From a virus, in IMG/VR virus record IMGVR_UViG_3300028887_000011, positions 1 through 51,557 of that record: 51,557 nucleotides of DNA, one strand, 5' to 3'. Positions 4,849-51,557 of this stretch are shown here, in pieces. The translations under genes were made by a program, and so were the position numbers. Positions within the stretch are counted from its first letter, which is position 1, and every line of letters starts with the position of its first letter. The notes beneath the pieces were generated by a model. That model saw nothing but the letters and a program-made list of their open reading frames with translations, did not search any database and was not told the origin of the DNA.

Positions 4849-4917
4849 AAATACAGAGATTGAGAGATACAACTCAATCAGAAAATTTAAGTTTCAAGTT
4901 TGAAAGGAAGTATTATT

Positions 4918-18300: not shown

Positions 18301-18393
18301 GAAGTAGTTATGGTTGATACAACTGAAAGAACTATTGAAACAAAAATGGTTGGCTATTATGGCAGTAGACAAGACCGAAGTTTTGAGTATTAA
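15379..18393 (+). CDS. Tail-fibre-like protein with tandem duplicated modules and a C-terminal calcineurin-like metallophosphoesterase domain
   Basis: GTG start after AAAGGAGAG. The N-terminal SIVGAINE motif is common in phage fibres. Phosphoesterase motifs are TDNHG, GDVVHG, GNHED, SHVPL and GHTHRQ. Confidence 0.7.
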   Translation: MPQVIVLEDGTTIVPYNSDRTGAQMDRAMDRGDSVGDISQLNTTDKSSIVGAINETSSEIANVTPAATAASKNFANEYAKNTRSIFASGLAWEQGTRYENGTTASATNRIRSMVGLSLPVGTTFTAATGYKITVIGANEASTTWYFTSGWVTTYTLKDNCNCYLLIAKSDDTSINIGDVDIDSILGIVVPNDSSAYYTDINVAAVGVIDTTTGQPSSTTNRAYTDFTSVRSGDIIGAKFGNDVRIYVHKYDFERAYLGNNGAWIKGGYYTVGSEAFIRLSISYADDRTVTTTDFATFESDIYVQRKTASLYDASTAQEEKISDINAEVVSHNMNLAGEYSEGVRKLYTSYLAWEQGTRQADGSTGSAANRIRSMTGLMLPVGTVVKATSNYKVVIIGANKDSDEWYFTSGWVNEFTVKDNCNCYFVLSKANSANLSVDDTPIDSIVTVEVPTEPIFTTGITMSAVGTIDTSTGQPSSTTNRAYTEFFNVNAGDLIGIRNGNNDRIYVHKYDERYNYLGNNGAWIKGSFYTVGTEKYIRLTTSFSDDRTVTTDMFATFEADIYVQRKVVNLYNADGEQADNSTALKNGFAIEQMPYLIQQGGYDGSGGIVSNNKRVRSSDWFELDSDCVIKNLDPAIGVNLVWKTGTSIGSWGWIEGAFEYEIPYVEGRVFKITAHYTDEATALSIGDYLSNVHIFKTSDAITIDKDELLPNWKSKVNEIQALQGTKFTFGVQTDNHGYDIDTNVKITPLKNLTKYIGFDFICNLGDVVHGYSADTKESMQLSLTEAIKRYTDGVCCPFLYALGNHEDDILYTTEGTQNNDLDEVILGDELYGRTIAKVKNTCQIHQPYRGFYYYVDFDEIRVIVLNTRDIAWQAISSSDIDISHHVISQTQITWLNDVAFNTTKKVIILSHVPLLDSLNAGIDNPVENGAAVRSVIEAHANQMIGCFSGHTHRQASDTSNGITYIVFANGGQFAEVVMVDTTERTIETKMVGYYGSRQDRSFEY
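15595..17076 (+). repeat. Intragenic tandem duplication (two ~234-aa copies: 15595..16296 and 16378..17076)
   Basis: The copies align along their length, for example LAWEQGTR...NRIRSM...KDNCNCY...TGQPSSTTNRAYT...RIYVHKYD...GNNGAWIKG...DDRTVTT...ATFE.DIYVQRK. Confidence 0.85.
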
Positions 18394-20893: not shown

Positions 20894-23020
20894 ATGGCAA
20901 ACAATCCATTAATTTATAAAAATGCTGAAAAAGTAAGGGATTCAATTACAGAATCTCAGAAAAAACAAATAGCAAAGTTATATGACGATTGGGCAAAAGA
21001 TATTGCTAAGATGGCAGAATATTACAAGAATAAAACAACAGCATCTGCTCCTTTATCAGCAAGGTATTATGAAGAACTTATGGCTCAATTAACCGAGACT
21101 TCACATCAAGTAAGTAATGAGGTGTATAAAGGACTTAAGCAAAGTATGTATCTTGTATCTGATGCGGTAATTGCAGATAATACAAAATGGCTTGAAAAGT
21201 TTGGCTTTCCAAAAGATGGATTGAATGCTGCATTTAGTTATGTTCCCGATAGTGTGGTAAGGTCAATTGCAACTGGTCAAGTATATGATTCAGGTTGGAG
21301 CTTATCGAAAAGAATTTGGGGAGATAATGAACAAACCATGCAAGACCTTTATAGGATAGTTGCTGGAGGTGTAGCTAAGCAGACACCGATTTATGATATA
21401 GCTAAACAACTTGAAAAATACGTTAAGCCAGGAGCTGCTAAACAATGGAATTTGACAGACAAAGATGGTAGAAAAATATATCCAAGACAAGTTGATTATA
21501 ATGCTCAGAGATTGGCAAGAACTTTAGTTCAGCATAGTTATCAGCAAGCATTTACTGCTGTATGTGAAAAAAATCCTTTTATAACTGATTATATTTGGAA
21601 TGCAAATGGCTCAAGAGTGTGTGAGATATGTAAAATGAGAGACGGACAACATTTCAAAAAAGACGAATTACCACTTGACCATCCAAATGGAATGTGTGTA
21701 ATGGAACCAAATGTGGTAGATGATATGACAAAGCAACTGGTAAATTGGTTTAATTCAGATGATGGAACATATCCTGAAATTGATGAATTTGCAAAGCAAT
21801 TTGGATATGATTCAAGTAAGTTTGAAGCACCAAAGTTTACCGATTTGCAAAACAAATATTTATTGCCATATGGTTTTAGTCCAAATAATATGCCAACAAA
21901 ATTTGAAGATTGGTCCTATAAAGTTTCATTTGACCAAGCATCAGAAATTCTTGCATCTATGGGAACAAGTTGGGGTGACCCACATCCATATCAAAAGCTG
22001 AAACAATATTTTGATGCTAATTTAGCAGGTGTTGGTACCAATATGCTTAATCAGCAAAAAGTTCAAGTGCAAACTCAACCTAAAAAGGAAGAAAAGAAAG
22101 TTAAGGTTGCTGAATTTACATATTGGCAGAATAAGTATCTTGGTCCTTATGGTTATAAAGCGGGCGAAAATATACCAAATTATGAAACATGGTATTTTAA
22201 TGCTACTTTCAAAGATATAAATAAAATGCAAAAAGAGGCTGAAAAGCTCGGCATGTCAATTGAAGATTTTTATGCTAAAAAAGTTGAAAAAGTCAAGTAT
22301 AAATATAAAACAGTTGAAGAGGCTAAAGTACTTGCTAGTGCAATTTCAAATGCAAATACTACCAACATTATCGACACATCAAGTTGGATAAGCATGGTTA
22401 AAAAGAACAATGAATCAGAAATTTTAGCAATAGAAGATGCAAAGAGAAAATTGCTAAGTACAGAAGAAGAAAAAGCTCTGCATAAATATACAGGTAGTGC
22501 TTATCGAACAATTAATGGATATTTGAGAGATAAAGCTGCTGGCAAGATTGATAAACCTGATGCAGATTTAGAAAAGTTAATTGCAGAAATGAGTTCAGGT
22601 TTGGAAAAGATGAAACTTGACAAAGACCTTTATGTTCGTAGAGGAACAGACTTGGGAGATTTGGCTGGTTTATTTATGACTGGCGATTTTAGTTCAAACG
22701 AATCAAGTTTATATGGAAAAACATCGGAAGAATTAAATGCAATGTTTCAAGGAGCAATTGGTGAATATGCAGGCTTTACAAGTACAAGTTCATTATGGAA
22801 CAGAGGTTTCTCTGGTTCTGTTGAAGTTGTTATGCGATTACCAGAAGGTACATCGGCTCAAAGTGTAATGAGAATAAGTCAATATGGAACAAGCGAAGGT
22901 GAAACTTTGCTTGACCATGGAATGAAAGTAAAGTGTTTGCTTATTGAAAAATCAGATGGACACCAGAGCTCAGCACACAGAGTATATCTTGATGTAATAC
23001 CTAAAAAAGAAAATAATTAA
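20894..23020 (+). CDS. SPP1 gp7 / Mu F-like minor head protein fused to a C-terminal ADP-ribosyltransferase domain
   Basis: Mu F-like signature NANGSRVCEICKMRDGQHF...PLDHPNGMCVMEP. ART motifs are YTGSAYRTINGYL, YVRRG (R), FTSTS (STS) and SEGETLL (ExE). Confidence 0.8.
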   Translation: MANNPLIYKNAEKVRDSITESQKKQIAKLYDDWAKDIAKMAEYYKNKTTASAPLSARYYEELMAQLTETSHQVSNEVYKGLKQSMYLVSDAVIADNTKWLEKFGFPKDGLNAAFSYVPDSVVRSIATGQVYDSGWSLSKRIWGDNEQTMQDLYRIVAGGVAKQTPIYDIAKQLEKYVKPGAAKQWNLTDKDGRKIYPRQVDYNAQRLARTLVQHSYQQAFTAVCEKNPFITDYIWNANGSRVCEICKMRDGQHFKKDELPLDHPNGMCVMEPNVVDDMTKQLVNWFNSDDGTYPEIDEFAKQFGYDSSKFEAPKFTDLQNKYLLPYGFSPNNMPTKFEDWSYKVSFDQASEILASMGTSWGDPHPYQKLKQYFDANLAGVGTNMLNQQKVQVQTQPKKEEKKVKVAEFTYWQNKYLGPYGYKAGENIPNYETWYFNATFKDINKMQKEAEKLGMSIEDFYAKKVEKVKYKYKTVEEAKVLASAISNANTTNIIDTSSWISMVKKNNESEILAIEDAKRKLLSTEEEKALHKYTGSAYRTINGYLRDKAAGKIDKPDADLEKLIAEMSSGLEKMKLDKDLYVRRGTDLGDLAGLFMTGDFSSNESSLYGKTSEELNAMFQGAIGEYAGFTSTSSLWNRGFSGSVEVVMRLPEGTSAQSVMRISQYGTSEGETLLDHGMKVKCLLIEKSDGHQSSAHRVYLDVIPKKENN

Positions 23021-40063: not shown

Positions 40064-40586
40064 TGGCAAAGCAGACAAAGAGTACGAGGCATGGAAACAG
40101 TCTGTAATTGACTTTTATCTGATAGGCAAAAATTTCAAAGAGCAGAAAATCGCTTTTGATAAAAGAAGGGAAAAATTCTATGCACAAGCAGATGAATATT
40201 TCGTAGATAAGTCTGAAACAAAAGAAATTTTTGCCACAGATGATTTTTCTTCGCCTGCAATTTGTACAGTAAACAAGGTTCAGCATACTGTGGTCAATTT
40301 TGATGCTGATAAGCTTGAGGATAAATTGGGTAAGGAATATTGCCAAGAATTTATCAATAAGTCCTACGAAGTACAGGATATGGCTGGCTTAATCGAGTAT
40401 CTGAAATCATGCGGTGTAAGTCCAAAGAAATTCAAGAGTTTTTTAAAGGTGACAAAGACAGTTGATACAAAGAAAATTGACCAGCTTTTTTTAACCGCCA
40501 AACTTTCTGAAAAGGATGTCGAAGGATGCTACACAGCCGAGAAAAAAAGCAGGTACTACACAGTGAAAGTGGAAAAGAAAAAGTAA
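40053..40586 (+). CDS. Hypothetical replication-module protein (177 aa)
   Basis: ORF only. No NTP-binding motif seen. Confidence 0.5.
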   Translation: MKNDGKADKEYEAWKQSVIDFYLIGKNFKEQKIAFDKRREKFYAQADEYFVDKSETKEIFATDDFSSPAICTVNKVQHTVVNFDADKLEDKLGKEYCQEFINKSYEVQDMAGLIEYLKSCGVSPKKFKSFLKVTKTVDTKKIDQLFLTAKLSEKDVEGCYTAEKKSRYYTVKVEKKK

Positions 40587-41539
40587 TTTCAGAAGGTGAA
40601 AAGCTTGCAAAAGTTTTATGGTATTATAACCTGATACCAAGTGTTCAATCAGGGACAGACAAAATTGTTTGTCCATTCCATGAAGATGTTAACCCAAGCA
40701 TGATTGTAAATTATCAAGATGGTTCATGGTATTGCTTTGGTTGTAATTTATCTGGAAATGCACAAAGATTTGTCTCCCTGATGGAACAGAAATATAATGG
40801 CTTGAATGACCTACAGGCTTTATCGAAATATCACAAAATACTGAAATCAAAAAAGTGCAGTAATATCAAGCTTAAAGTGAATCATAAACAACAGAAATTA
40901 GCAAAGGCTGATTTGTATAACGAAGCATGTGATTATTACTATGGATTGAAAACAGTAGACTGGAGATATTCAGAAGAACAAGAGGTCGTAGAAGCCAAAG
41001 CATATATGAATAAACGAGGCTTTAAATCTTATGTTTTAAAGAAGTGTAAAGCCAAGATAACATACAATAAAAGTTATGGTTTGATATTTCCTATGCTTGA
41101 CAATGGAGAGTTTAAGGGCTGGGTGTGCAGGACAATGCTGGCTGAGATAGAAAAGAAAAGAAAGTATCTTTATAATACAGGCTTTTCAAGGGCTACTACG
41201 TTGGTAGGAGATTACGGTAGCAAAGATTATGTTTTCGTAGTTGAAGGCTATATGGACAGATTGAAATTCATTCAATTTGGAGAAACAAATGTGGTGGCTA
41301 TTCTCGGCTGGAAAATGACTACTCAGCAGATTCAGAAGTTAAAAGATAAAGGAATAAAAACCATAGTCAGCGCACTTGACAATGATTCTTGTGGCAAAAG
41401 GGGAACAGAATACTTGAAAGGATTTTTTAAGGTTGTTCGTTTTCGATACCTTAAAGGAATAAAGGACCCAGGAGAAATGACAAAAGAATCATTTGACAAG
41501 ATGTATAATAAAACTATAAAAAGCTTAAAGGAGAAGTAA
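40526..41539 (+). CDS. DNA primase (CHC2 zinc finger plus TOPRIM), with no helicase domain
   Basis: VCPFHEDVNPSMIV...WYCFGCNLSGN (CHC2). VVEGYMD and ALDNDSCGKRG (TOPRIM). No other in-frame start exists downstream of 40526. Confidence 0.8.
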   Translation: MLHSREKKQVLHSESGKEKVISEGEKLAKVLWYYNLIPSVQSGTDKIVCPFHEDVNPSMIVNYQDGSWYCFGCNLSGNAQRFVSLMEQKYNGLNDLQALSKYHKILKSKKCSNIKLKVNHKQQKLAKADLYNEACDYYYGLKTVDWRYSEEQEVVEAKAYMNKRGFKSYVLKKCKAKITYNKSYGLIFPMLDNGEFKGWVCRTMLAEIEKKRKYLYNTGFSRATTLVGDYGSKDYVFVVEGYMDRLKFIQFGETNVVAILGWKMTTQQIQKLKDKGIKTIVSALDNDSCGKRGTEYLKGFFKVVRFRYLKGIKDPGEMTKESFDKMYNKTIKSLKEK

Positions 41540-41542
41540 AAA

Positions 41543-42391
41543 ATGGGTTTACTCGATAAAATCAAATCAGATGTTGCTAAATCAGGCAGCAACAAAGGCA
41601 AGTTTATCTATTTCAGAGAAGGTCAAAAGGTCCGTGTACGTTTCCTCAATGACATGGACGAGGGCATGGAAGTAAAGTTCCATGACAGTTTTGAAAGAGG
41701 TATAAATGTTCCTTGTCAGGAACTGTTCGGCAGAAACTGTGCATATTGCGAAGATGATGATTTAAGAACCAGAAGTCAGTATGTATGGTCGGTATATGAT
41801 TATGAATCAAAGGAAGTTAAACTGTTCATGTTTGCAGTAAATAACTGTTCACCAATACCTGCTCTTATGGCAATGTATGAAACATATGGAACATTAACTG
41901 ACAGAGATTTTGTAATAACTGTGACAGGTAAGCAGCAGAACAAAACATTCTCTGTGGTTCCTATGGACAAAAACAAATTCAGAAATGAAAAGGCAAAACC
42001 TTTCTCAGAAAAGGCAATACTTAAAATGCTTGATAAGGCATTTCCTGCTGATGATTCAGACGACGACGAGGACGACGACGAGGACGAAGATGAGGACGAA
42101 AGACCTGCAAAGAAATCTAAGTCAACAAAGGGAGGCAATACAAGGGCAAAAGCCAAGGCTGAGCCTGAAGAAGATGATGCAGACTGGGAGGACGATGATG
42201 AAGCCGAGCAGGACTATTCAGAAATGACGCCTAAGGAACTTTTCAAGCTCTGCAAAGATAGAGACATTGAAGTTGTTCCAAAGAAGCCAGCGAAGTACTA
42301 CATCAACCTGCTTGAGGAATATGATGCTGCTCAGGAAGATTGGTCGGAAGATGATGAGGACGACGAAGAGGAGTGGGAAGATGATGAGTGA
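41543..42391 (+). CDS. T4 gp32-like ssDNA-binding protein with an acidic C-terminal region containing a HeH-like module
   Basis: VRVRFLND...KFHDSF...PC...NCAYC parallels the gp32 RFLP...H...C...CxxC zinc site. QYVWSVYDY corresponds to SYWANILVV. The tail ends EEEWEDDE. Confidence 0.6.
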   Translation: MGLLDKIKSDVAKSGSNKGKFIYFREGQKVRVRFLNDMDEGMEVKFHDSFERGINVPCQELFGRNCAYCEDDDLRTRSQYVWSVYDYESKEVKLFMFAVNNCSPIPALMAMYETYGTLTDRDFVITVTGKQQNKTFSVVPMDKNKFRNEKAKPFSEKAILKMLDKAFPADDSDDDEDDDEDEDEDERPAKKSKSTKGGNTRAKAKAEPEEDDADWEDDDEAEQDYSEMTPKELFKLCKDRDIEVVPKKPAKYYINLLEEYDAAQEDWSEDDEDDEEEWEDDE

Positions 42392-42818
42392 ATCGCAAAA
42401 TGGCTCGACACAGAAGAGGTCCCTTTCTGATTGGAATAAAATGATTGTTCCAAATGAAACTGCTTTTAGTACACTGTTTAAAATGCAGATGAAAAATCAG
42501 GATTTAATAATGTCCACAGGCTTGTATGAGGGATTTGTATATGAGCAAAAAGATTTGCCAACCGATGATACAAAATTGATGTCATATCATATTTTGCAAT
42601 TAATGTCAGAGATTGGCGAACTGCTTGATTCAGATAAGCGTTGGAAGAATTTTCGCAATGCAAAGTTTGAAAAGGACGAGAAGCTCATGGAACTTGCAGA
42701 TTGCTTTATTGTCTTAATGAACATAACAATATTTTCAGGATTTTCTGCCGATGAAATTGTGCAAGCAATTGCTGATAAGATAGTGACAGTGCGAAAGCGA
42801 ATAGAAGATAAGATGTAA
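42381..42818 (+). CDS. All-alpha NTP pyrophosphohydrolase (MazG / dimeric dUTPase-dCTPase superfamily)
   Basis: ILQLMSEIGELLDSDKRWKNF and KLMELADCFIVLMNI fit the ExxE...WK...ExxD pattern. ATG 42381 overlaps the end of the SSB gene. Confidence 0.55.
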   Translation: MMSESQNGSTQKRSLSDWNKMIVPNETAFSTLFKMQMKNQDLIMSTGLYEGFVYEQKDLPTDDTKLMSYHILQLMSEIGELLDSDKRWKNFRNAKFEKDEKLMELADCFIVLMNITIFSGFSADEIVQAIADKIVTVRKRIEDKM

Positions 42819-42879: not shown

Positions 42880-43431
42880 ATGGTTATAATAGTTGAAGGC
42901 ATTGACCGTATAGGAAAAACAACTTTATGCAATGCTTTATCAAAAAAGCTCGGTTTTCCAATTTACAAAGAACTTGGTGTCGAAAAGAAATCAAGAGAGG
43001 GAAATGTAAGGTCGCAAATGGCTCTTATAGGCCTGTGTCAGAAAACAGATTGCAATGTAATATTTGACAGAATGTTTACATCAGAGTGTGTCTATGGAAT
43101 GATTGACAGAGGGTACCCAATAAAATATGCAATTAATGATTTTAATTGTGCTCTTGCTGAGGCGGCTAAAATACCACATCTGGTATATGTTGGAATGAAG
43201 TCAACTGACATAAAAAAATCATCGGCAGAACATGGAAAAGAATTATCAAAACATGAGTGCATGTTTGATACAATGCAAAATTTTGTAAAGGAAAAAATTG
43301 ACAAGGTTTTTCTTGAATGCACTTATTTTGATATTGATAATCTTGTTGAAAAAATTTATGCTTATTATCTTGATTGTAAGGAGGAAATAGAGCATGCAAA
43401 GTGTACAGGTACAATTGACAACGAAGTGTAA
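42880..43431 (+). CDS. Thymidylate-kinase-fold dNMP kinase
   Basis: P-loop IVEGIDRIGKTT (compare EGxDGxGKTT) and FDRMFTSECVYG (DRY/F motif). ATG 42880 follows GGAGGG. Confidence 0.6.
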   Translation: MVIIVEGIDRIGKTTLCNALSKKLGFPIYKELGVEKKSREGNVRSQMALIGLCQKTDCNVIFDRMFTSECVYGMIDRGYPIKYAINDFNCALAEAAKIPHLVYVGMKSTDIKKSSAEHGKELSKHECMFDTMQNFVKEKIDKVFLECTYFDIDNLVEKIYAYYLDCKEEIEHAKCTGTIDNEV

Positions 43432-44260
43432 TGAAAGATGCTTTATGTGTAGGAAATACACATGGGAAAAGAAAGAAATTCCTTTTGAAGTTTTATTTGA
43501 AAAAATAAATAAGTACAAAGAAGCTAATTTCACATTTTCAGGCGGCGACCCACTTGAGTATTCAGAATTAAAAGCCTTGACTGAATTGCTCGTAAAAAAT
43601 AATATACGTTATCAGGTGTTTACAAATATGAATTATAATTTGACACCTGCTATGGAAGAATTTTTGCAGAATGCAGAATGCATACAAGTAAGCTTAGATG
43701 GCTCAACAGAAGAAGTATATAATTATGTTCGCAGACCAATTGAAAATGGTTTGATGTATGTAATTCACAATATTGAAAGATTCAAGTTAAAGGTCAAGGC
43801 AAATTGCACAGTATCAAATAGAAATTATCTTGATGTTCCAAATATCTATAACTTGGCAAAGCAGCTTGATGTTCCTATCAGATTTTTCCCTGTGCATACG
43901 CATGATGATGCAATGATAACATCTGAAATGTATAAAAGACTGGAATATAAAGTTTTAGGAGAAGAACCTCCCGAGGAAATTCAGAAATTATGCAAATTAA
44001 TGTCAGAAGGCAGACCGGAGTTCAGCAGTTGCTGGGTAAAGAGAGAGCACAGGGTGATAGATGAAAGTGGAAAAGAATATCCTTGTTGCAGAGCAATAAA
44101 TGATAATGGGGAAGATTGGGACGGAAAATATTCAATAGATAATTTGGAAGGTATAGAAAATGAAAATATTTTATATCCTTTCTGCAAAGGTTGCGATAGA
44201 TACATTAAGTTCAATACAAACAAAGAAAAGTATAAAAGAAAGGTTGGTCAATATTTATGA
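43394..44260 (+). CDS. Radical SAM enzyme with a Cys-rich (SPASM/twitch-like) C-terminal region
   Basis: CNERCFMC (CxxxCxxC, nt 43427-43450), FSGGDPLE and QVSLDGSTEEVYNYVRR. C-terminal cysteines are C...CC...CKGC. GGAGG upstream. Confidence 0.75.
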   Translation: MQSVQVQLTTKCNERCFMCRKYTWEKKEIPFEVLFEKINKYKEANFTFSGGDPLEYSELKALTELLVKNNIRYQVFTNMNYNLTPAMEEFLQNAECIQVSLDGSTEEVYNYVRRPIENGLMYVIHNIERFKLKVKANCTVSNRNYLDVPNIYNLAKQLDVPIRFFPVHTHDDAMITSEMYKRLEYKVLGEEPPEEIQKLCKLMSEGRPEFSSCWVKREHRVIDESGKEYPCCRAINDNGEDWDGKYSIDNLEGIENENILYPFCKGCDRYIKFNTNKEKYKRKVGQYL

Positions 44261-45405
44261 AAATTTTGTGGATACCGCAGATAAGCAGCAAGTCGATGGA
44301 CGGAAAAGTTTTATTGAATAAAGATAGCAATATGTCAGTTCTCAGAAACTTAATAGGAACCGATTTGACAGAAAAAAATAAAATAACCGTTGCATTTGAA
44401 TTTGCACCCGGAAACTGCCTCATAGATAAAGAGGTAAAAAATAATTTTGATTTGGTGTTCGATGAAACACATGAGTTTACAAATGCAATGCTTGAAAGAA
44501 TGCATTTTAATATCGATTATTTTATTGATATTAGAAAAATGAATTTTGACATTGTATTTACAAACGAACCGACAAAGGTTATTCCTTTAAGGAAGATTTT
44601 TACGAATATCCCAGTTGTCTGCTATAACCATTGGTTGGCATTCAAAAATATGCCAGAAATATCATTGAGGCAGGTAGAAGGAATGGCAGCAGCTGATTGT
44701 TGTTTCGTTAATTCAAACTATGTAGCCGAAATGGTAAATAATCATTATGTTGGTACATCAGATTTGAGTAGAATACATTTTGTTAAAGCTCAGCCGTCTT
44801 TTGCTGGCGATATTTATCCGGTTAATAAGGTAGATTCATCTGCAGCATTTATTTACAATCACAGGCTCAGTTCTGACCCCTACTATGCTGATGCTTATAA
44901 ATCTTTATGTCAAATATGCGACATATTAGAAAAGTACTTAGGAAAAGAAGGCAAGCCAATGCCAACAATATATTTTACAAATCCAAGCGGTAAGAGTTTC
45001 AAGTTTGATAAGGAATATTTTAAAGAGATACATTTGGAATCGCAAGAGGAATATAGAAAGTTTTTGAGGTCAAATAAAATCTGCGGTCATTTGAATACAT
45101 TTTTTAATTCAGCAGGAATGTGGTCAATGTCAACAGTTGATTGTGCTGCTGCTGGCAATCCTTGTATTGTTCCAAAAAAATATGGATATGCAGAAATATT
45201 TGAGGAAACATATTATGGATATGTCAAAAATGTGGAAGAGGCTGCTTTCAAAATATATGAATTAATTATGCACCCTGAAGTATGTGTAAAATATAAAAAT
45301 TCATTTATCGAGAATCACACAAATAAAGTGATAGGTAAATTGATGAATGATGAGCTTGAAAAGTGGGTAAATATATATAATATTCCAGTGTGTGGAGGAA
45401 AATAA
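44257..45405 (+). CDS. GT-B fold (GT4-like) glycosyltransferase
   Basis: DIVFTNEP, ADCCFVNSNYVAEMV, FIYNHRLS and GMWSMSTVDCAAAGNPCIVPKKYGYAEIFEE resemble the GT4 layout, but the EX7E glutamates are not conserved. ATGA overlap with the radical SAM gene. Confidence 0.5.
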   Translation: MKILWIPQISSKSMDGKVLLNKDSNMSVLRNLIGTDLTEKNKITVAFEFAPGNCLIDKEVKNNFDLVFDETHEFTNAMLERMHFNIDYFIDIRKMNFDIVFTNEPTKVIPLRKIFTNIPVVCYNHWLAFKNMPEISLRQVEGMAAADCCFVNSNYVAEMVNNHYVGTSDLSRIHFVKAQPSFAGDIYPVNKVDSSAAFIYNHRLSSDPYYADAYKSLCQICDILEKYLGKEGKPMPTIYFTNPSGKSFKFDKEYFKEIHLESQEEYRKFLRSNKICGHLNTFFNSAGMWSMSTVDCAAAGNPCIVPKKYGYAEIFEETYYGYVKNVEEAAFKIYELIMHPEVCVKYKNSFIENHTNKVIGKLMNDELEKWVNIYNIPVCGGK

Positions 45406-45406
45406 A

Positions 45407-46078
45407 ATGTATATCAATATGGTATGTGAATGTGATACTGCTACACAAGCTTTCGATTGGTGGTACGATAAACTTGTTCGTATGAGTGATTCACAAGAAT
45501 CAAGAGACGGAGAAGTGCACGGCGAAATTATAAATGCAATAACAGTTATCTCAGACCCAACAAGAAATATCTGCAAGTCAGATATACGCAAGTTGTCTAT
45601 GAGATATGCAATGGGAGAATTTCTTTGGTACTTGTCTGGCAACAATAATCTTTCAGAAATTCAGAAATACACAAACAACTGGGACAGAATGTCAGATGAT
45701 GGTAAAACAGTAAACTCAAATTATGGTTATTGTATTCAGCATAAATATGGCTTTAATCAGTTAGATTATATTTATAATTTGCTGAAAGAAAAGCCAGAGA
45801 CGAGGCAGGCTGTTATCCATATAAAAGCACCTGATAATTCAGAAAGCAAAGATGTAAATTGCACGGTTTGTTTACAATTTTTCATTCGAGAAAATAAGTT
45901 GTATATGACAACCTACATGAGGTCAAATGATATATGGCTTGGTTTTCCATATGATGTTTTTCAATTCTGCAATTTGCAGATATTACTGAGTATGAAACTC
46001 GGCATAGAGCTTGGCTCATATACACATATTGCAGGTTCATTGCATTTGTATGAAAGAGATGTGAAAAAAGATGTTTGA
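45407..46078 (+). CDS. Thymidylate-synthase-fold pyrimidine hydroxymethylase, T4 gp42 (dCMP hydroxymethylase)-like
   Basis: EFLWYLSG, VNSNYGY, PETRQAVIH, NCT (Cys152, nt 45860-45862), MRSNDIWLGFPYDV (Asp183, nt 45953-45955) and GSLHLYERD. Closely parallels the gp42 segments INSNYGW, MRSNDVVFGFRNDY and GSLHVYSRH. Confidence 0.75.
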   Translation: MYINMVCECDTATQAFDWWYDKLVRMSDSQESRDGEVHGEIINAITVISDPTRNICKSDIRKLSMRYAMGEFLWYLSGNNNLSEIQKYTNNWDRMSDDGKTVNSNYGYCIQHKYGFNQLDYIYNLLKEKPETRQAVIHIKAPDNSESKDVNCTVCLQFFIRENKLYMTTYMRSNDIWLGFPYDVFQFCNLQILLSMKLGIELGSYTHIAGSLHLYERDVKKDV

Positions 46079-48806
46079 TTTGCATAGGCATGATAATTTT
46101 TCAATATTCGATGGGTTTGGAAATCCAAAAGAACTAGCTGCTTTAGCAAAAGAAATAGGATATACTGCCTTAGGTATAACCAATCATGGAAATACAAATG
46201 GATTGGTTCAGCATTATTTCGCATGCAAAGAAGCAGGCATTAAGCCAGTGCTTGGAGTAGAGGGCTACTTTCTCCCTAAATATAAATCTCAGACGAGGGG
46301 CTACCATTTGATTTTGGTGGCAAAGAATGCAACTGGCTATAAGAACATGAACACCATACAATTCTTAGGAGAAAAGCAAAAGTATTATAACCCAATATGG
46401 GATTTTTCAATGCTGGAAAAATATCACGAAGGATTGATTTGTTCGTCTGCTTGTGTGGCTGGATTTTTAGCTCAGTGCATTATAAAAAATGAGTATGAAA
46501 AAGCAGAAAAGTTTTTGAGAAAAATGCAGGATATTTTTGAAGATGATTTTTATGTAGAGATTCAGCCATACAAAATATCCGATGAAGGTGTGCAAGAGCA
46601 TATCAATGTAGAATCAATAAAGTTAGCAAAGAAGCTTGGTATAAAATGTATTTTGACTTCTGACTCGCATAGAGGTAGAAAAGAGGATTTTGATTCGTAT
46701 TTGAAAATGCATGAAATTTCAAAGCATGATGAAGCATGGGTAAGGGGAACATATGAGGAAAGATATATGCCTGCTCCAACAGAAATGCAAAAGAGATTTG
46801 TAAAAATGCATATAAAAGATTTTGGAAAAGAAAAGGCTATTAAGCTGGCAAAAGAAATGGCTAAGAATGTAGCAGAGATAGAAGAAAAAGTTGAGCCCGA
46901 TATAATGGAACAACTCGAGTTGGTGATGCCAAAGATTGAGGATTCAGATTCGGTACAAAATCTGAAAAATGAAGTTATCAAAGGTTTGAAAGAAAAAGGC
47001 CTGTATAAAAAAGAGTATATTGAAAGATGCAAAGAAGAATTAAAGGTAATCATAAGTCATGGTTTTGCTGACTACTTTTTGGTTGTGCAAGATTATGTAA
47101 GATGGGCAAAACAAAGAGGAATTATAGTTGGACCAGGAAGAGGTTCTGTTTGTAATTCAGAAGTTGCTTATGCTTTAGGAATTACAGAAGTGGATTCAAT
47201 TATGTTTGGCTTGGACTTCAGACGTTTTCTTCGTATGGATAAAAAGAAAATACCTGATATTGACTTGGATTTTGAAACATCACGAAGAAAAGAAGTTATT
47301 GATTATCTAATAAAAAAGTATGAAGGTCATGCGGCAAGAATATGTGCTTACGGTTTATATCGAGTTGACAATACAATAAATGATTTGGCTTCTGTTTGTG
47401 GTTTAAGATTTTCCGGAACAGATTTGGACGAATCAGAAAAGAAGCGAAATAAATCAATTGTTGCAGATATAAAAGCATTTGCTAAACAATATGTTGAAGG
47501 CGAGGAACTTGATAAAGATGGCTTAATGTCAGATGATAGATACAAGATGTATAATGCAGAATATGATAACATAATGAAGCACTTTACAAAATTGTATAAA
47601 AAGGTTAGATACATCGGAACTCATGCTGCAGGTGTTGCTATTACAGGTGGAGATTTATCGCAATATACAGCAGTAAGAATCGATAAAGATGGAAACTATT
47701 TCACAAATTATGATTTGATAGACATTGAAAAAGTCAATGTAATTAAGTTCGATATTCTCGGCCTGCAAACAATGGAAAGTATAGGAGATTTAAGAAAGTC
47801 GACAGGTGTCACAGTTGATTATTCAGAAGTTGTAAATGATGAAAAGATTTTGAAAGCATTCAGAGAAGGAACATGCGATGGTATATTCCAGTTCGATTCT
47901 GTAACACCAAGGGGGATTCTAAAAAAGATTGAATGCGATTGTTTTGAAGATGCGGTTGCTGCTTCATCTATGAATCGTCCAGGACCATTGCAATTAAAAA
48001 TGCCAGATATGTATGCCGAGAATAAAACTAATGTTGAAGATGCAAGGGCAAGTAAATATTGGGAATATACTCAGGACACTTATGGCACAATTGTTTACCA
48101 AGAACAGATTATGCTAATTTGTGTAAATATAGGTGAAATGGAATGGGCAACTGCTGATAAAATTATCAAGATGATGAAGTCAACTTCTCAGAAGGCAGAA
48201 GAGGCTGCAGAGCAAAAAAGACTTGGTCAAAATTTATTGGAGGAGTTTTGGACAGGTGCTAAAAAGAAAGGATTTACAAAAGAAGAAGCCGAAGATTTAT
48301 TTGTAAAAATGACAGATTCATATTCATTCAACAAAGGACATGGTGTAGGCTATACATTAATATCATTCGAGGAAATGTTTTATAAAGTTTATTATCCGAC
48401 TGAATATTGGTTTTCCAAAATTAAGTATGCAAAAGATGATAAGCAATATAGAATATTTTGCGAAAAAGCTGTAAAAGATGGTTCAATAGTTTTCTTGCCA
48501 CATGTCAATTATTCTTCGGAAAGAACAAGGCTCAGAAAGATTGAAGGGGAAAATGCAATCCAGCAAGGTTTATCAGATATATTGGGTGTAGGAGAAAAGG
48601 CAGCTCAATATATTTTTGAAGAAAGAAAAAAGAACGGTGTATTTATTTCGTACGATGATTTTTATGACAGGTGCAAATCAAGAGTGGTGACATCAAGGGT
48701 AATAAATATATTGTTAGAATCAGGTGCACTTGAGTTCAATAAAAAGACATATATTAGCAGAATAAAAAAATATAATTCTGCATTATATGCACAAGCAAAT
48801 AGATGA
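46071..48806 (+). CDS. dnaE: DNA polymerase III alpha-type replicative polymerase (PHP plus Pol IIIa core), compact 911 aa
   Basis: FDLHRHDNFSIFDG (PHP), GPGRGSVCNSEVAYALGIT, DIDLDFE, KFDILGLQT, GIFQFDS, MNRPGP, YQEQIM and FNKGHGVGY. Confidence 0.9.
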   Translation: MFDLHRHDNFSIFDGFGNPKELAALAKEIGYTALGITNHGNTNGLVQHYFACKEAGIKPVLGVEGYFLPKYKSQTRGYHLILVAKNATGYKNMNTIQFLGEKQKYYNPIWDFSMLEKYHEGLICSSACVAGFLAQCIIKNEYEKAEKFLRKMQDIFEDDFYVEIQPYKISDEGVQEHINVESIKLAKKLGIKCILTSDSHRGRKEDFDSYLKMHEISKHDEAWVRGTYEERYMPAPTEMQKRFVKMHIKDFGKEKAIKLAKEMAKNVAEIEEKVEPDIMEQLELVMPKIEDSDSVQNLKNEVIKGLKEKGLYKKEYIERCKEELKVIISHGFADYFLVVQDYVRWAKQRGIIVGPGRGSVCNSEVAYALGITEVDSIMFGLDFRRFLRMDKKKIPDIDLDFETSRRKEVIDYLIKKYEGHAARICAYGLYRVDNTINDLASVCGLRFSGTDLDESEKKRNKSIVADIKAFAKQYVEGEELDKDGLMSDDRYKMYNAEYDNIMKHFTKLYKKVRYIGTHAAGVAITGGDLSQYTAVRIDKDGNYFTNYDLIDIEKVNVIKFDILGLQTMESIGDLRKSTGVTVDYSEVVNDEKILKAFREGTCDGIFQFDSVTPRGILKKIECDCFEDAVAASSMNRPGPLQLKMPDMYAENKTNVEDARASKYWEYTQDTYGTIVYQEQIMLICVNIGEMEWATADKIIKMMKSTSQKAEEAAEQKRLGQNLLEEFWTGAKKKGFTKEEAEDLFVKMTDSYSFNKGHGVGYTLISFEEMFYKVYYPTEYWFSKIKYAKDDKQYRIFCEKAVKDGSIVFLPHVNYSSERTRLRKIEGENAIQQGLSDILGVGEKAAQYIFEERKKNGVFISYDDFYDRCKSRVVTSRVINILLESGALEFNKKTYISRIKKYNSALYAQANR

Positions 48807-48825
48807 AATAATATGCTTTTATTAA

Positions 48826-48854
48826 TTGACATTTTTCAGAAAATGTGATATAAT
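48826..48854 (+). promoter_or_regulatory. Consensus promoter P8 with extended -10
   Basis: TTGACA 48826-48831, TG 48846-48847, TATAAT 48849-48854. Confidence 0.8.
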
Positions 48855-48883
48855 GATAATGTCAGAATTGATTCAAAATGAAA

Positions 48884-48917
48884 TAGATACTGGACGTTAG
48901 TTCGTCCAGTTTATCTA
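48884..48917 (+). other. 5' leader stem-loop upstream of recA
   Basis: TAGAT-ACTGGACG-ttagtt-CGTCCAGT-tt-ATCTA gives 13 bp with a 2-nt bulge. It lies between the -10 element and the SD. Confidence 0.6.
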
Positions 48918-48937
48918 AGTAATTTAAGGAGGAAAAT

Positions 48938-49885
48938 ATGGCGAAAACCAATAAAGCAGAAATAATAAAACTCTGCAACGAGATTAACAAAAAAGAGGGT
49001 GAAGGTTCCATTTATTCGATTGGTAGTAAACATGCAAATCTGAAAATAAACAGATGGTCAACAGGCATTGAAGATTTAGATGCTATCATCGGAGGAGGTA
49101 TGCCAGAAGGCAGAGTGGTAGAAATATTTGGTCCCGAATCATCGGGAAAAACAACACTGTTATATCATTTGTGTGGATTGCATAGTATGTGTTTAGATAT
49201 ACCAATTGAAGGCACGTTTGATGCAGACAGAGCAAGGATATTTGGTAATAGGCCAAAACAAATGTTAATCTATCGTGCAAAGTACGGCGAAGATGCATTT
49301 AATAAAACAATAAAGTTTGCCAAGGCTGGCATTCCACTTATTGGAATTGATTCAGTACCAAGTATGGTTCCAAAAGATGATGCGGAAAAAGTTTTGAAAT
49401 CGGCAGAGAGAGATTCAATTGAGGAACAAAGAATCGGTGGTACGGCCAGATTGATGAACAAGTATTTGCCGACGGTTGAGGAAATAATCGAGATAACTGG
49501 TACAACATTGATTTTTATAAATCAGGTTCGTGATAAGATGAATGCAATGTTGTTTGGAGAAAAGACAGATACTCCTGGAGGTAGAAAGCTCAAGCATGCA
49601 TGTTCTTTGAGAATACAGGTTGCAAGAAAAGCATGGATTGAAATACCAAATAAAAATCCTCATAATTCTGCAACAACAGAAAAAATCGGTTTGATAATGA
49701 AATGCAAAGTTGTGAAATCAAAAATAAGCAATCCACAAGGAGAATGTGAAATACCTTTAATTTTTGAAAGGGGATTTGTAAGCTTTGATGATGTTCCTAC
49801 AATTCGCAAAGAGATTATGAAACAGAGAGCTGAAAAGTATGGTAAAAGAGTTCCAAAAGAATTTTATGAGGAGGACGACGAGTGA
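48938..49885 (+). CDS. recA: RecA-family recombinase
   Basis: STGIEDLDAIIGGGMPEGRVVEIFGPESSGKTT, IGIDSV and LIFINQVRDKM...TPGGRKLKHACSLRI are collinear with E. coli RecA. Confidence 0.85.
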   Translation: MAKTNKAEIIKLCNEINKKEGEGSIYSIGSKHANLKINRWSTGIEDLDAIIGGGMPEGRVVEIFGPESSGKTTLLYHLCGLHSMCLDIPIEGTFDADRARIFGNRPKQMLIYRAKYGEDAFNKTIKFAKAGIPLIGIDSVPSMVPKDDAEKVLKSAERDSIEEQRIGGTARLMNKYLPTVEEIIEITGTTLIFINQVRDKMNAMLFGEKTDTPGGRKLKHACSLRIQVARKAWIEIPNKNPHNSATTEKIGLIMKCKVVKSKISNPQGECEIPLIFERGFVSFDDVPTIRKEIMKQRAEKYGKRVPKEFYEEDDE

Positions 49886-50073
49886 TGGAAAAGTGTAAGA
49901 ATTGCAAATGCTTTGATAACAAAAGACCTGTATCGACATCGACAAGAAATGATGCATATAAAAATGCAGAAAAGTACATTGGATATTGTAAAAATACAAA
50001 TAGGCCAACAATGATGAATGATGGCTGCTTATATTTTGAACCGAAGGAGAAAAGCAATGAGCAGATTAAGTAA
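49885..50073 (+). CDS. Small Cys-rich protein (CKNCKC...C...C)
   Basis: ATG 49885 overlaps the recA stop (TGATG). GAGGAGGA lies 9 nt upstream. Confidence 0.45.
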   Translation: MEKCKNCKCFDNKRPVSTSTRNDAYKNAEKYIGYCKNTNRPTMMNDGCLYFEPKEKSNEQIK

Positions 50074-50494
50074 AGATGAATATTATTTGCAGATTGCAAA
50101 TGCTGTTTCTGAAAGAAGTACTTGCTTAAAAAGAAAGTATGGTTGTGTAATTGTCAAGAATGATGAAATTATTGCAACAGGTTATAATGGAAATCCAAGG
50201 GGAGAAAAAAATTGTTGTGATGTAGGAAAATGTGGAAGAATGAATAAGCCACATAATTCTGGCGATTATTCAGATTGTCACAGTGTTCATGCAGAACAGA
50301 ATGCCATGTTATCAGCTGCAAGAAAAGATATGATTGGTTCGACAATGTATATTGCAGGTATTGAGCCAATTCCTTTTTCTGGATATACCCAAGAAATATA
50401 TCCTTGCGAACCATGCCCCATTTGTGAAAGAATGATACGAAATGCAGGTATAAAAAAAGTGGTAACAATAAGTGGGGTAAAAGATTATGAGTAA
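50057..50494 (+). CDS. dCMP deaminase (ComEB/Cd type)
   Basis: STCLKRKYGCVIV, GYNG, HAEQNA and PCPICERMIRNAGI. ATG 50057 follows GAAGGAG. Confidence 0.85.
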   Translation: MSRLSKDEYYLQIANAVSERSTCLKRKYGCVIVKNDEIIATGYNGNPRGEKNCCDVGKCGRMNKPHNSGDYSDCHSVHAEQNAMLSAARKDMIGSTMYIAGIEPIPFSGYTQEIYPCEPCPICERMIRNAGIKKVVTISGVKDYE

Positions 50495-51317
50495 TGGCTT
50501 GATAGGAGAAATCAAAAAGGCAGCAAAGAAGAACGGCACAAAAATACAAACATCAGAATCTGCTCAGCTTGAAAAAATCCTTAATGCTACTTTTTATCTT
50601 GAAAGAAATATTGAGGAAGAAACAAGGTTTATAAAACAGGTAATGACAAGAGGAGCAGAGACTCAGGAAAGAGTAGGACTTCATGCATCGGCATTAATTG
50701 CTGGTGAAAAAGACTTTTGTATCAGACAACAAGTATTAAGTTTAATTTACAAACAGCTTCAGGGTGAACAGATTGAAGTAGGTTTAAAAAGAATATTTGA
50801 GCAAGGTAATGCTATCCATGAAAAGTGGCAGAGATTATTTATTCGTGCTGGATATTCTACGGCAGACGACCTTGATGTTACTCAGTTCAATGAAGAATAT
50901 AAAATCAGTTTTACTCCTGACATTATTTGTTCGATACCTGAATTTTACAAAGGAAAAATGATAGGTGAAATCAAATCTGTAAATACATTTCAATTTCAGA
51001 AAATGACAAAGCATCCATCAGCTTATAAGCAATGCCAATGGTATATGTTTTTGACTGGTATTAAAAAGGGCTTTGTTCTTTCAGAAGATAAAAACACACA
51101 AGACTTCAAAATTGAAGTATATGACTTTGATTCAGAATTAATTGCTCCATTTCAAGATAGGGCAGAACAGATAATGTATTATTACAACAGAGTTCTAAAC
51201 GAACATAAAATGGTTAGCAGACCAAATGATTGCAAATCAGCAGATTACAAAAGATGTTCACGATGTGCTATGAGAGAGGCATGTTGGAATATCGGAAAAG
51301 GAAAAATTAAAATATAA
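50487..51317 (+). CDS. Cas4/RecB-like PD-(D/E)xK exonuclease with a four-Cys cluster
   Basis: One N-terminal Cys (DFCIRQ), then PDIICS...GEIKSV (D...ExK), then C-terminal CSRCAMREAC. Confidence 0.55.
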   Translation: MSNGLIGEIKKAAKKNGTKIQTSESAQLEKILNATFYLERNIEEETRFIKQVMTRGAETQERVGLHASALIAGEKDFCIRQQVLSLIYKQLQGEQIEVGLKRIFEQGNAIHEKWQRLFIRAGYSTADDLDVTQFNEEYKISFTPDIICSIPEFYKGKMIGEIKSVNTFQFQKMTKHPSAYKQCQWYMFLTGIKKGFVLSEDKNTQDFKIEVYDFDSELIAPFQDRAEQIMYYYNRVLNEHKMVSRPNDCKSADYKRCSRCAMREACWNIGKGKIKI

Positions 51318-51430: not shown

Positions 51431-51557
51431 AAGAATGGACATTAAATTTGAGAATAAAGGTAAGCAAATTTCAGGAGTATCAAAATATTGGTTGGTATGG
51501 TTTATATTCATACTTGTTTTGATGTATATGTTCGATTCAAAATTACCATTATTTCTG
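51431..51557. repeat. Right copy of the 127-bp terminal direct repeat, identical to 1..127
   Basis: Read directly. Confidence 0.95.

Follow-up and report, generated by a model that had tools for sequence, protein, structure and literature searches.

A predicted dCMP hydroxymethylase next to a variable radical SAM and transferase cassette in a siphovirus genome

The DNA analysed here, called the window throughout, is the whole 51,557-nucleotide stretch of IMG/VR virus record IMGVR_UViG_3300028887_000011. At 45407-46078 it carries a gene for a protein resembling thymidylate synthase (TS), referred to below as the TS-like enzyme, which a first-pass annotation made from the letters alone had predicted to act on deoxycytidine monophosphate (dCMP) rather than deoxyuridine monophosphate (dUMP). 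Because its last 127 bases (51431-51557) repeat its first 127 (1-127), the window is a complete, circularly assembled phage genome of ~51.43 kb. The phage is one of the gut or rumen. The TS-like gene and the codons on which its assignment turns are as follows.

45407-46078, plus strand: TS-like enzyme, predicted dCMP hydroxymethylase (5-hydroxymethyl-dCMP synthase), 223 residues, assigned from PF00303 and the residue signature.
45716-45724, plus strand: tca-aat-tat, Ser104-Asn105-Tyr106, with the water-positioning pair of the hydroxymethylase signature (T4 Ser94 and Tyr96).
45851-45853, plus strand: gat, Asp149, three residues before the catalytic Cys (T4 Asp145, E. coli Leu143), a marker of a hydroxymethyl rather than a methyl product.
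45860-45862, plus strand: tgc, Cys152 in the context NCT, the catalytic nucleophile (T4 Cys148, E. coli Cys146), from the codon read and alignments.
45929-45931, plus strand: gat, Asp175 (E. coli Asp169, T4 Asp171), a position that is Asn in flavin-dependent 5-hydroxy-dCMP synthases.
45953-45955, plus strand: gat, Asp183, the base-specificity position (T4 gp42 Asp179, E. coli ThyA Asn177), from the codon read and alignments.

The open reading frame (ORF) of the TS-like enzyme starts at the ATG at 45407, 1 base past the stop codon of the upstream gene and with GGAGGA ~10 nt to its 5' side. Its TGA stop codon overlaps the ATG (46071) of a DNA polymerase III alpha gene in the sequence ATGTTTGA. 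The protein matched the Pfam family PF00303 (Thymidylat_synt) at E 1.4e-27, and its AlphaFold2 model had a predicted local distance difference test score (pLDDT) of 88.6 and a predicted template-modelling score (pTM) of 0.87. When this model was searched with Foldseek, MilA was returned first (TM 0.87), T4 dCMP hydroxymethylase (dCH, the product of gene 42) and HY126 dCMP hydroxylase came next, and ThyA proteins came after these; the Foldseek probability was 1.00 against MilA, T4 dCH and ThyA. The 11 best PDB fold matches were all enzymes of cytosine nucleotides (MilA, T4 dCH and HY126 dCMP hydroxylase), with the HY126 structures at ranks 9-10.

We considered whether the protein is a true ThyA and rejected this identity on the basis of Asp183, Asp149, the missing C-terminal segment and the missed cut-offs of family models. 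The TS-like enzyme terminates 8 residues past Tyr215 and lacks the ThyA C-terminal region; RB69 gp48, which is functional, is likewise short and terminates 12 residues past its H.Y block. The NCBIfam thymidylate-synthase equivalog models all scored below their cut-offs for this protein (79 bits for the best, against a required 174.55). A search of all six frames of the genome with a TS profile and the ThyX motif revealed no second TS gene and no ThyX motif.

The base-specificity position was judged from MAFFT alignments of 6, 9 and 156 sequences, with T4 gene 42, E. coli thyA, SPO1 gene 29, RB69 ORF048 and the homologues of phage VPE25 and Lactobacillus phage ATCCB as references. Asp183 is encoded by gat within the segment MRSNDIWLGFPYDV, which is present exactly as first quoted. 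It shared a column with T4 gp42 D179, RB69 gp48 D194 and the Asp of MilA and of VPE25, and the same column held Asn in E. coli ThyA (N177) and SPO1 gp29 (N194). The aligned characterised enzymes of cytosine nucleotides (T4 gp42, RB69 gp48 and MilA) all have Asp in this column, whereas both aligned enzymes of uracil nucleotides (E. coli ThyA and SPO1 gp29) have Asn. HMMER pairwise alignments to MilA and B. subtilis ThyA agreed on the column. The distance from the catalytic Cys to the Asp or Asn is ungapped and exactly 31 residues in the TS-like enzyme, T4 gp42, E. coli ThyA and MilA, and in the AlphaFold2 model Asp183 lies in the first turn of a helix spanning residues 180-198. The structural equivalence of Asp183 is based on these alignments, the identical spacing and the secondary-structure position.

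The reference strings used in the first-pass annotation, MRSNDVVFGFRNDY for T4 gp42 with Asp179 and QRSCDVFLGLPFNI for E. coli ThyA with Asn177, matched the fetched genes in sequence and numbering, and Cys152 aligned with T4 C148 and E. coli C146 as proposed. Asp183 lies inside the base-recognition column and not outside it. The rule that ties Asp or Asn to the base is textbook knowledge and was restated, together with a rule for Leu143, in a 2026 paper (PMC13326640). An Asn-to-Asp swap turned ThyA into a dCMP methylase, according to the work as it is cited in PMC13326640, and T4 D179N lost dCMP binding and activity (PMC6400193). The Asp183 column, read with this mutagenesis-based rule, supports the prediction that dCMP rather than dUMP is the substrate.

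The other active-site residues bear on the group that would be added. In T4 gp42, the hydroxyl derives from a water activated by Asp145, an acidic residue three before the Cys that is Leu in ThyA, and the C5 proton is taken up by a water positioned by Ser94 and Tyr96 (PMC6400193). The T4 substitutions D145N, Y96F and S94N abolished activity and S94A retained about 25%; an acidic residue three before the Cys, combined with Ser/Thr-x-Tyr, was proposed as the hydroxymethylase signature (PMC6400193). This published signature is complete in the TS-like enzyme as Asp149, Ser104 and Tyr106. Together with the missing ThyA C-terminal region, it favours the earlier ranking of hydroxymethylation above methylation as the predicted reaction. 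The remark that the NSNYG and GSLH.Y blocks look more like gp42 than ThyA also held: NSNYG, the Ser94/Tyr96 site of T4, is identical to the corresponding part of T4 INSNYG (E. coli, LGPVYG), and GSLHLY is close to T4 GSLHVY (E. coli, GDTHLY).

Twelve key positions were compared (E71, S104, Y106, R133, Q134, D149, C152, S173, D175, D183, H213 and Y215). The TS-like enzyme equals T4 gp42 at 11 of these, the T4 residues being E60, S94, Y96, R123, D145, C148, S169, D171, D179, H216 and Y218; the single exception is Gln134, which is Arg124 in T4. Arg172/Ser173 (T4 R168/S169) and His213/Tyr215 (T4 H216/Y218) are common to T4 gp42 and E. coli ThyA. The folate site is kept as Tyr67, Glu71, Trp92, Tyr215 and Arg217, equivalent to T4 Tyr56, Glu60, Trp82, Tyr218 and Arg220, with Glu71 corresponding to the folate-activating residue E60. 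Of the Arg123/Arg124 pair that contacts phosphate from the partner subunit in T4, the first is kept as Arg133, and position 134 was Gln in 43 and Arg in 16 of 59 related loci.

Three of these positions separate the TS-like enzyme from relatives that also act on cytosine nucleotides. RB69 gp48 and its relatives make 5-hydroxy-dCMP with the help of flavin and O2. They carry Asn at E. coli position 169, and D169N was proposed as diagnostic of this class, with Asn in all nine natural members tested (PMC13326640). The equivalent residue is N186 in RB69 gp48 and Asp175 here, and because it is Asp and not Asn, the TS-like enzyme is not expected to be a flavin-dependent 5-hydroxy-dCMP synthase. The preference of MilA for cytidine monophosphate (CMP) over dCMP comes from K133 and A176, and the swaps K133R and A176S shift MilA towards dCMP (PMC6400193). 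In the TS-like enzyme the MilA Lys133/Ala176 columns are Arg133/Ser173, the very residues introduced by those swaps, which argues for a deoxy rather than a ribo substrate.

Asp183, Asp149, Asp175 and Cys152 were invariant both in the 120 closest homologues (65-88% identity) and in 59 TS-like genes of related phage contigs. In the same 59 loci the Ser104 column was Ser in 56 (2 Gly, 1 gapped) and the Tyr106 column Tyr in 58 (1 gapped). A first search with the TS-like enzyme yielded 4,574 proteins at E 0.001. Among the 150 nearest relatives, taken as the best representatives of 50%-identity clusters from an exhaustive search, 145 had Asp/Asp/Asp at positions 149/175/183, and at 183 there were 2 Asn and 3 gapped sequences. 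The family is thus widespread, with 145 Asp-type cluster representatives in the nearest 150 alone. An identical TS-like protein is encoded on 5 contigs, for which places are shown from JGI, ENA and Logan samples; since the same protein recurs in this way and Asp183 is invariant among the homologues, neither a sequencing error nor chance accounts for Asp183. Among the nearest diverse relatives of the Asp type, many run to 440-616 residues and so have sizeable additional domains joined to the hydroxymethylase-like core.

Of the homologues in phages for which experimental data exist, the nearest is the 'thymidylate synthase' of Enterococcus phages VPE25 and VFW, which is 42.5% identical over 82% of the TS-like enzyme and shares its Asp/Asp/Ser-x-Tyr signature. 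DNA of VPE25 and VFW resists bisulfite conversion, EcoRI and MspI and is cut by PvuRts1I, which the authors read as glucosylated hydroxymethylcytosine (PMC4999554). In VPE25 the TS homologue lies two genes before a T4-like beta-glucosyltransferase gene. We infer that the modification phenotype of these phages is tied to their TS homologue.

The genes that surround the TS-like gene in the window are listed below.

40526-41539: primase.
41543-42391: weakly SSB-like protein.
42384-42818, plus strand: all-alpha nucleoside triphosphate (NTP) pyrophosphatase-like protein (dUTPase_2 family), candidate dCTPase.
42880-43431, plus strand: small P-loop nucleotide kinase, resembling those of known cytosine-hypermodification clusters.
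43394-44260, plus strand: radical S-adenosylmethionine (SAM) enzyme, lineage-specific, with CX3CX2C at residues 12-19 and C-terminal Cys motifs (PF04055, E 2.9e-10).
44257-45405, plus strand: probable GT-B-type glycosyltransferase of a distinct family, from sub-threshold Pfam matches in GT-B order.
46071-48806, plus strand: DNA polymerase III alpha-type replicative polymerase (Pfam PHP, DNA_pol3_alpha, finger and HHH_6).
48938-49885: RecA/UvsX-like protein.
50057-50494, plus strand: dCMP deaminase family protein (PF00383, E 3.6e-22).
50487-51317: Cas4-like/RecE-like exonuclease gene, just after the dCMP deaminase gene.

All large ORFs of the genome lie on one strand, and the G+C content is about 34%. 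Terminase, portal, major head, tape measure and Dit genes are present, which points to a siphovirus. Sister contigs measure 51.4-51.6 kb, near-identical ones of 51,403 and 51,571 bp coming from a JGI and an ENA sample. GenBank phages contained no megablast match to 43000-49000, and hence no close annotated relative of this genome.

Several of the neighbours belong to gene kinds known from characterised clusters for cytosine hypermodification. The pyrophosphatase matched Pfam PF08761 at E 6.6e-5 (23.7 bits, over a cut-off of 22.9 bits) and PHROG 173 (NTP pyrophosphohydrolase) at E 4.7e-9, and had no match in the PDB; its gene directly precedes the kinase gene in 40 related loci. The kinase matched PHROG 761 (thymidylate kinase) at E 1e-12, and its best PDB sequence match was YorR (2axp/3kb2). 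Its family profile resembled RB69p045 (hhalign probability 96.5%, E 7.6e-10), and its likeness to T4 gp1 was confined to the P-loop. Nucleotide kinases of known cytosine-modification clusters include RB69p045 in RB69, the YorR-like DLP3_078 in DLP3 and RL38J1_214 in RL38J1 (PMC13326640). The dCMP deaminase gene is present in 27 related loci.

Some features were noted beside these genes. A protein in the viral structure library, A0A8S5MQL3, has a TS fold similar to that of the TS-like enzyme fused to a dCMP-deaminase domain, a sign that the two activities may be functionally connected in some phages. An 8-oxoguanine-glycosylase-like gene (Pfam OGG_N, E 9.5e-15; cluster c13) was found in one related locus (L011, 15450-16304), where it immediately follows the dCMP deaminase gene, and in 20 other related loci, and is absent from the window; in phages whose DNA is modified, such a glycosylase may serve repair or be directed at host DNA. 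Elsewhere in the window, a 708-residue head-morphogenesis/minor head protein (20894-23020) resembles an ADP-ribosyltransferase exoenzyme toxin family over residues 517-687 (PHROG 3895, E 1e-10). A 1004-residue ORF (15379-18393) between the terminase and portal genes had no PHROG match at E 1e-5. A DUF7192 protein (3929-4747) is followed by an AAA ATPase (4900-6006) that is CobS/MoxR-like and matched PHROG 249 'porphyrin biosynthesis' at E 7.6e-48.

The genes between the kinase and the polymerase were compared in 36 related loci with a complete kinase-to-polymerase stretch. The backbone of primase, pyrophosphatase, kinase, cassette, TS-like enzyme and polymerase was constant, whereas the cassette genes themselves varied. 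A radical SAM gene was present in 23 of the 36 resolved cassettes. The transferase family of the window occurred in 9, and in each of these 9 the radical SAM gene was present. Other cassettes encode one or more members of a GT1-like superfamily (profile searches tied clusters c10, c12, c40 and c116 together), a protein of GT8-like type, cytidylyltransferase-like proteins and one that has a choline/sugar-kinase-like domain. In Agathobaculum phage AB434P2 (OP172633, 1314-5582), for example, a choline/sugar-kinase-like gene, a cytidylyltransferase-like gene and two GT1-like genes stand around the TS homologue. A constant backbone for precursor supply with swappable genes for group transfer and sugar activation is the layout of known pyrimidine hypermodification clusters. 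A hydroxymethyl product fits this cassette, and thymidine monophosphate (dTMP) or 5-methyl-dCMP does not, because group-transfer enzymes need a hydroxyl acceptor.

The radical SAM family is small, comprising 35 protein clusters in 5.8 billion sequences, several of them on ~42-52 kb contigs. The enzyme's only PDB sequence match was BlsE, the cytosylglucuronate decarboxylase of blasticidin S biosynthesis (E 2.7e-5). Its AlphaFold2 model (pLDDT 91) also returned BlsE (7vob) as the top Foldseek match (E 1.3e-12, TM 0.64), followed by CteB, viperin-like enzymes, anSME, SuiB, DesII and MoaA. The NCBIfam BlsE model ranked ninth, behind generic SPASM-type models. With that rank and a TM score of only 0.64, a specific relationship to BlsE is taken as a lead and not as a conclusion; the enzyme probably acts on a sugar or nucleotide-sugar rather than a peptide. 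We found no radical SAM enzyme in a cytosine-modification cluster in the literature searched, where papers pairing radical SAM chemistry with 5-hydroxymethylcytosine (hmC) hypermodification concern other systems.

The transferase had two sub-threshold Pfam matches, Glyco_transf_4 at residues 92-165 (E 2.6e-5) and Glyco_trans_1_2 at residues 263-341 (E 4.4e-4), which recur in 12 and 7 of 31 family members, respectively. Some of its homologues (P0317, P0326, P0331, P0332, P0341 and P0342) are fused to cupin or mannose-6-phosphate-isomerase domains. A profile search of the PDB with the transferase matched nothing. Its identification as a DNA glucosyltransferase of a known type was not sustained, as it showed likeness neither to the T4 enzymes nor to any PDB entry.

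Taken together, the residues, the gene order and the relatives make it likely that the TS-like gene encodes a folate-dependent dCMP hydroxymethylase (5-hydroxymethyl-dCMP synthase) that feeds a cytosine-hypermodification pathway. By homology to T4 gp42, Cys152 would attack C6 of dCMP, Asp183 would read and protonate the N3/N4 face of cytosine, and methylene-tetrahydrofolate would be activated by Glu71. The C5 proton would then be removed by water held by Ser104 and Tyr106, and water activated by Asp149 would add to the exocyclic methylene, giving a hydroxymethyl and not a methyl product. On the supply side, the gp56-like pyrophosphatase may convert deoxycytidine triphosphate to dCMP, and the small nucleotide kinase, with host kinases, may phosphorylate the product up to the triphosphate level. 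The phage polymerase III alpha would incorporate the modified nucleotide in place of cytosine, a replacement that may be complete. The adjacent transferase could decorate the hydroxymethyl group, and the radical SAM enzyme could tailor either the donor or the attached group.

A further proposal is more tentative, and we put it forward as possible rather than probable. It holds that hmC anchors a chemically undescribed hypermodification built by the radical SAM enzyme, whose nearest relative of solved structure, BlsE, acts on a cytosine-linked sugar, and a transferase that is its obligate partner and is unlike known DNA glycosyltransferases. The sister cassettes might then specify a range of distinct hmC decorations in siphoviruses that infect anaerobes, one of them the first cytosine modification in DNA to be tailored by a radical SAM enzyme.

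Several observations weigh against the assignment as a dCMP hydroxymethylase within such a pathway. The predicted substrate and product rest on residue rules taken from enzymes only 25-36% identical to the TS-like enzyme. By BLASTP it scored best against MilA (35%, 114 bits) and SPO1 gp29 (32%, 93 bits), ahead of RB69 gp48 (70 bits), E. coli ThyA (69 bits) and T4 gp42 (29%, 61 bits). The closest characterised relatives are therefore a CMP enzyme and a dUMP enzyme and not gp42; overall similarity is silent on the base, and the likeness to gp42 is seen in motifs only and not across the full sequence. Gln134 replaces T4 R124 and E. coli R127, and SPO1 gp29 has the same Arg-Gln pair. The homologue of Agathobaculum phage AB434P2, which is 71% identical and also has Asp at the specificity position, is labelled deoxyuridylate hydroxymethyltransferase in GenBank. 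This label is probably wrong when judged by that residue, and probably arose because overall similarity cannot tell the base. Among the neighbours, the pyrophosphatase matched the T4 gp56 dCTPase at BLASTP E 5e-5 over 107 residues, with a weak profile match, and the dCMP deaminase would equally suit a pathway based on dUMP. The glycosyltransferase assignment is built on the sub-threshold Pfam matches, and profile comparison of this family with the T4 alpha- and beta-glucosyltransferases gave a probability below 1%.

These points were considered together with four other readings. One is a dUMP hydroxymethylase of the SPO1 gp29 type, which we regard as unlikely; its product would be 5-hydroxymethyl-dUMP, and the base replaced and later decorated would be thymine rather than cytosine. 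The rank of SPO1 gp29 as second-closest characterised relative speaks for it, as do the Arg-Gln pair at 133/134 and the Asp three before the Cys that it shares, the dCMP deaminase that could supply dUMP, the dUTPase_2 family of the pyrophosphatase and the GenBank annotation of the closest cultured homologue, that of AB434P2. However, Asp183 is invariant where SPO1 gp29 and ThyA have Asn, Asn/Asp swaps change base specificity in T4 dCH and, as cited, in ThyA, and the relatives in VPE25 and VFW belong to phages with modified cytosine. The dCMP deaminase gene is non-discriminating, as T4 also encodes one (gene cd). In the case of a 5-hydroxy-dCMP synthase of the RB69 gp48 or HY126 AfhB type, flavin and O2 would hydroxylate C5 and a sugar would be attached by an ether link. 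The fold, the specificity Asp, the acidic residue before the Cys, the similarly short C-terminus, the HY126 structures among the best fold matches, and glycosyltransferase and nucleotide-kinase neighbours of the kinds seen in RB69 and DLP3 are all consistent with this reading. We nevertheless hold it to be very unlikely, since the Asn found at E. coli position 169 in all nine tested enzymes is Asp175 here and Asp in 59 of 59 relatives, the folate-site residues are kept, and the reaction needs O2, whereas the cultured relatives infect Agathobaculum, a strict anaerobe.

Still less probable is a dCMP methyltransferase of the Xp12 type, which would form 5-methyl-dCMP by hydride transfer from folate in the manner of ThyA N177D; it was judged from the ThyA Leu143 rule only. 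Methylation had been the less likely option in the first-pass annotation, and the specificity Asp alone turns ThyA into a dCMP methylase in the work as cited. The bulky hydrophobic residue of methyl-forming enzymes (E. coli L143) is, however, Asp149 in the TS-like enzyme, the protein has the Ser-x-Tyr water site, carries Met95 in place of Trp83 and lacks the C-terminal region of ThyA, and the neighbouring transferases would be left without a hydroxyl acceptor. The least probable of the four is that a MilA-like CMP hydroxymethylase works with the transferase and a BlsE-like radical SAM enzyme towards a free cytosine-sugar nucleoside (compare mildiomycin and blasticidin) and not towards modified DNA. 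Although MilA is the closest characterised relative by both sequence and fold, BlsE is both the sole PDB sequence match and the top fold match of the radical SAM enzyme, and the transferase gene lies between the radical SAM and TS-like genes, both positions that set the CMP preference of MilA are of the deoxy type here. No candidate for a nucleotide hydrolase of the MilB/BlsM type was found among the adjacent cassette genes scanned, and the BlsE match is modest, with generic radical SAM enzymes close behind. The genes also lie between a nucleotide kinase and a replicative polymerase, in a backbone that persists in relatives lacking the radical SAM and transferase genes.

The dCMP hydroxymethylase assignment adds to a known kind of enzyme, as homologues of the Asp type are plentiful and siphoviruses of Firmicutes were already known to contain glycosylated hmC; modifying phage DNA in this way is an established strategy. 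In databases the protein and its many relatives carry the name thymidylate synthase, and the nearest homologue from a cultured phage is entered as a dUMP hydroxymethylase; their residues point instead to modified cytosine. Such DNA would probably resist many restriction enzymes and some CRISPR nucleases, may be under-represented or mis-called in some sequencing chemistries and may be a target of modification-dependent defence systems. The family occurs in phages whose Firmicute hosts are strict anaerobes, which makes a route that needs O2 unlikely. The radical SAM/transferase cassette beside the TS-like gene is the part that could prove new, and the variable cassettes, above all this pair, are a concrete place to look for new DNA chemistry. 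A literature search returned nothing on Agathobaculum phages. The cultured relatives among these, AB434P2 and AB434P3, would make cassette chemistry directly testable, with the AB434P2 cassette differing from that of the window.

Compared with known systems, the TS-like enzyme falls, by sequence, fold and curated family models, in a pyrimidine-hydroxymethylase-like branch of the TS superfamily and is placed, by its residues, in the functional class of gp42. Its status as a gp42 orthologue was rejected, as gp42 scored below MilA, SPO1 gp29, RB69 gp48 and E. coli ThyA. With E. coli ThyA it shares the fold, the catalytic Cys and the equivalents of Glu58, Arg166, Ser167, Asp169, His207 and Tyr209, and it differs in Asn177 to Asp, Leu143 to Asp, Trp83 to Met and the loss of a C-terminal region of ~50 residues. 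SPO1 gp29 has in common with it the Asp three before the Cys, the Arg-Gln phosphate pair and a hydroxymethyl product, and is distinguished by Asn194 at the specificity position, Ala in place of Ser104 and a length of 383 residues with a long C-terminal domain. The 5-hydroxy-dCMP synthases RB69 gp48, DLP3 gp80 and HY126 AfhB are alike in the short TS fold, the specificity Asp and the acidic residue before the Cys, and their clusters also contain glycosyltransferases and a small nucleotide kinase homologous to that of the window; they differ in the Asn at E. coli position 169 (Asp175 here) and in the use of flavin and O2.

MilA, the CMP 5-hydroxymethylase of mildiomycin biosynthesis (PDB 5b6d and 5jnh), is the closest characterised relative (phmmer E 1.2e-27) and, like the TS-like enzyme, has Asp both at the specificity position and three residues ahead of the Cys. 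It differs in the ribonucleotide-favouring Lys133/Ala176 and in a C-terminal extension (PDB chains of 316-342 residues) and, unlike the phage enzyme, is bacterial and makes the precursor of a small-molecule antibiotic. T4 gp42 (PDB 1b5d and 6a9a) shares the fold, the eleven key residues named above, the NSNYG, MRSND and GSLH.Y blocks and an adjacent glycosyltransferase gene, a probable one in the window; a replicative polymerase gene adjoins the TS-like gene in the window and lies close by gene 42 in T4. The T4 enzyme has 246 residues against 223, with a C-terminal helix past the H.Y block that is lacking here. It has FRN where the TS-like enzyme has FPY before the specificity Asp, and Arg124 where the latter has Gln134, and it comes from a T4-like myovirus, whereas the window is a siphovirus with a polymerase III alpha. 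The systems of VPE25 and VFW resemble the window in coming from siphoviruses with a Firmicute host and a polymerase III alpha gene nearby. Their TS homologue differs in its 281 residues with a C-terminal extension, its partner is a T4-like beta-glucosyltransferase that the window lacks, and the radical SAM gene of the window has no counterpart in the stretch of VPE25 and VFW that was examined.

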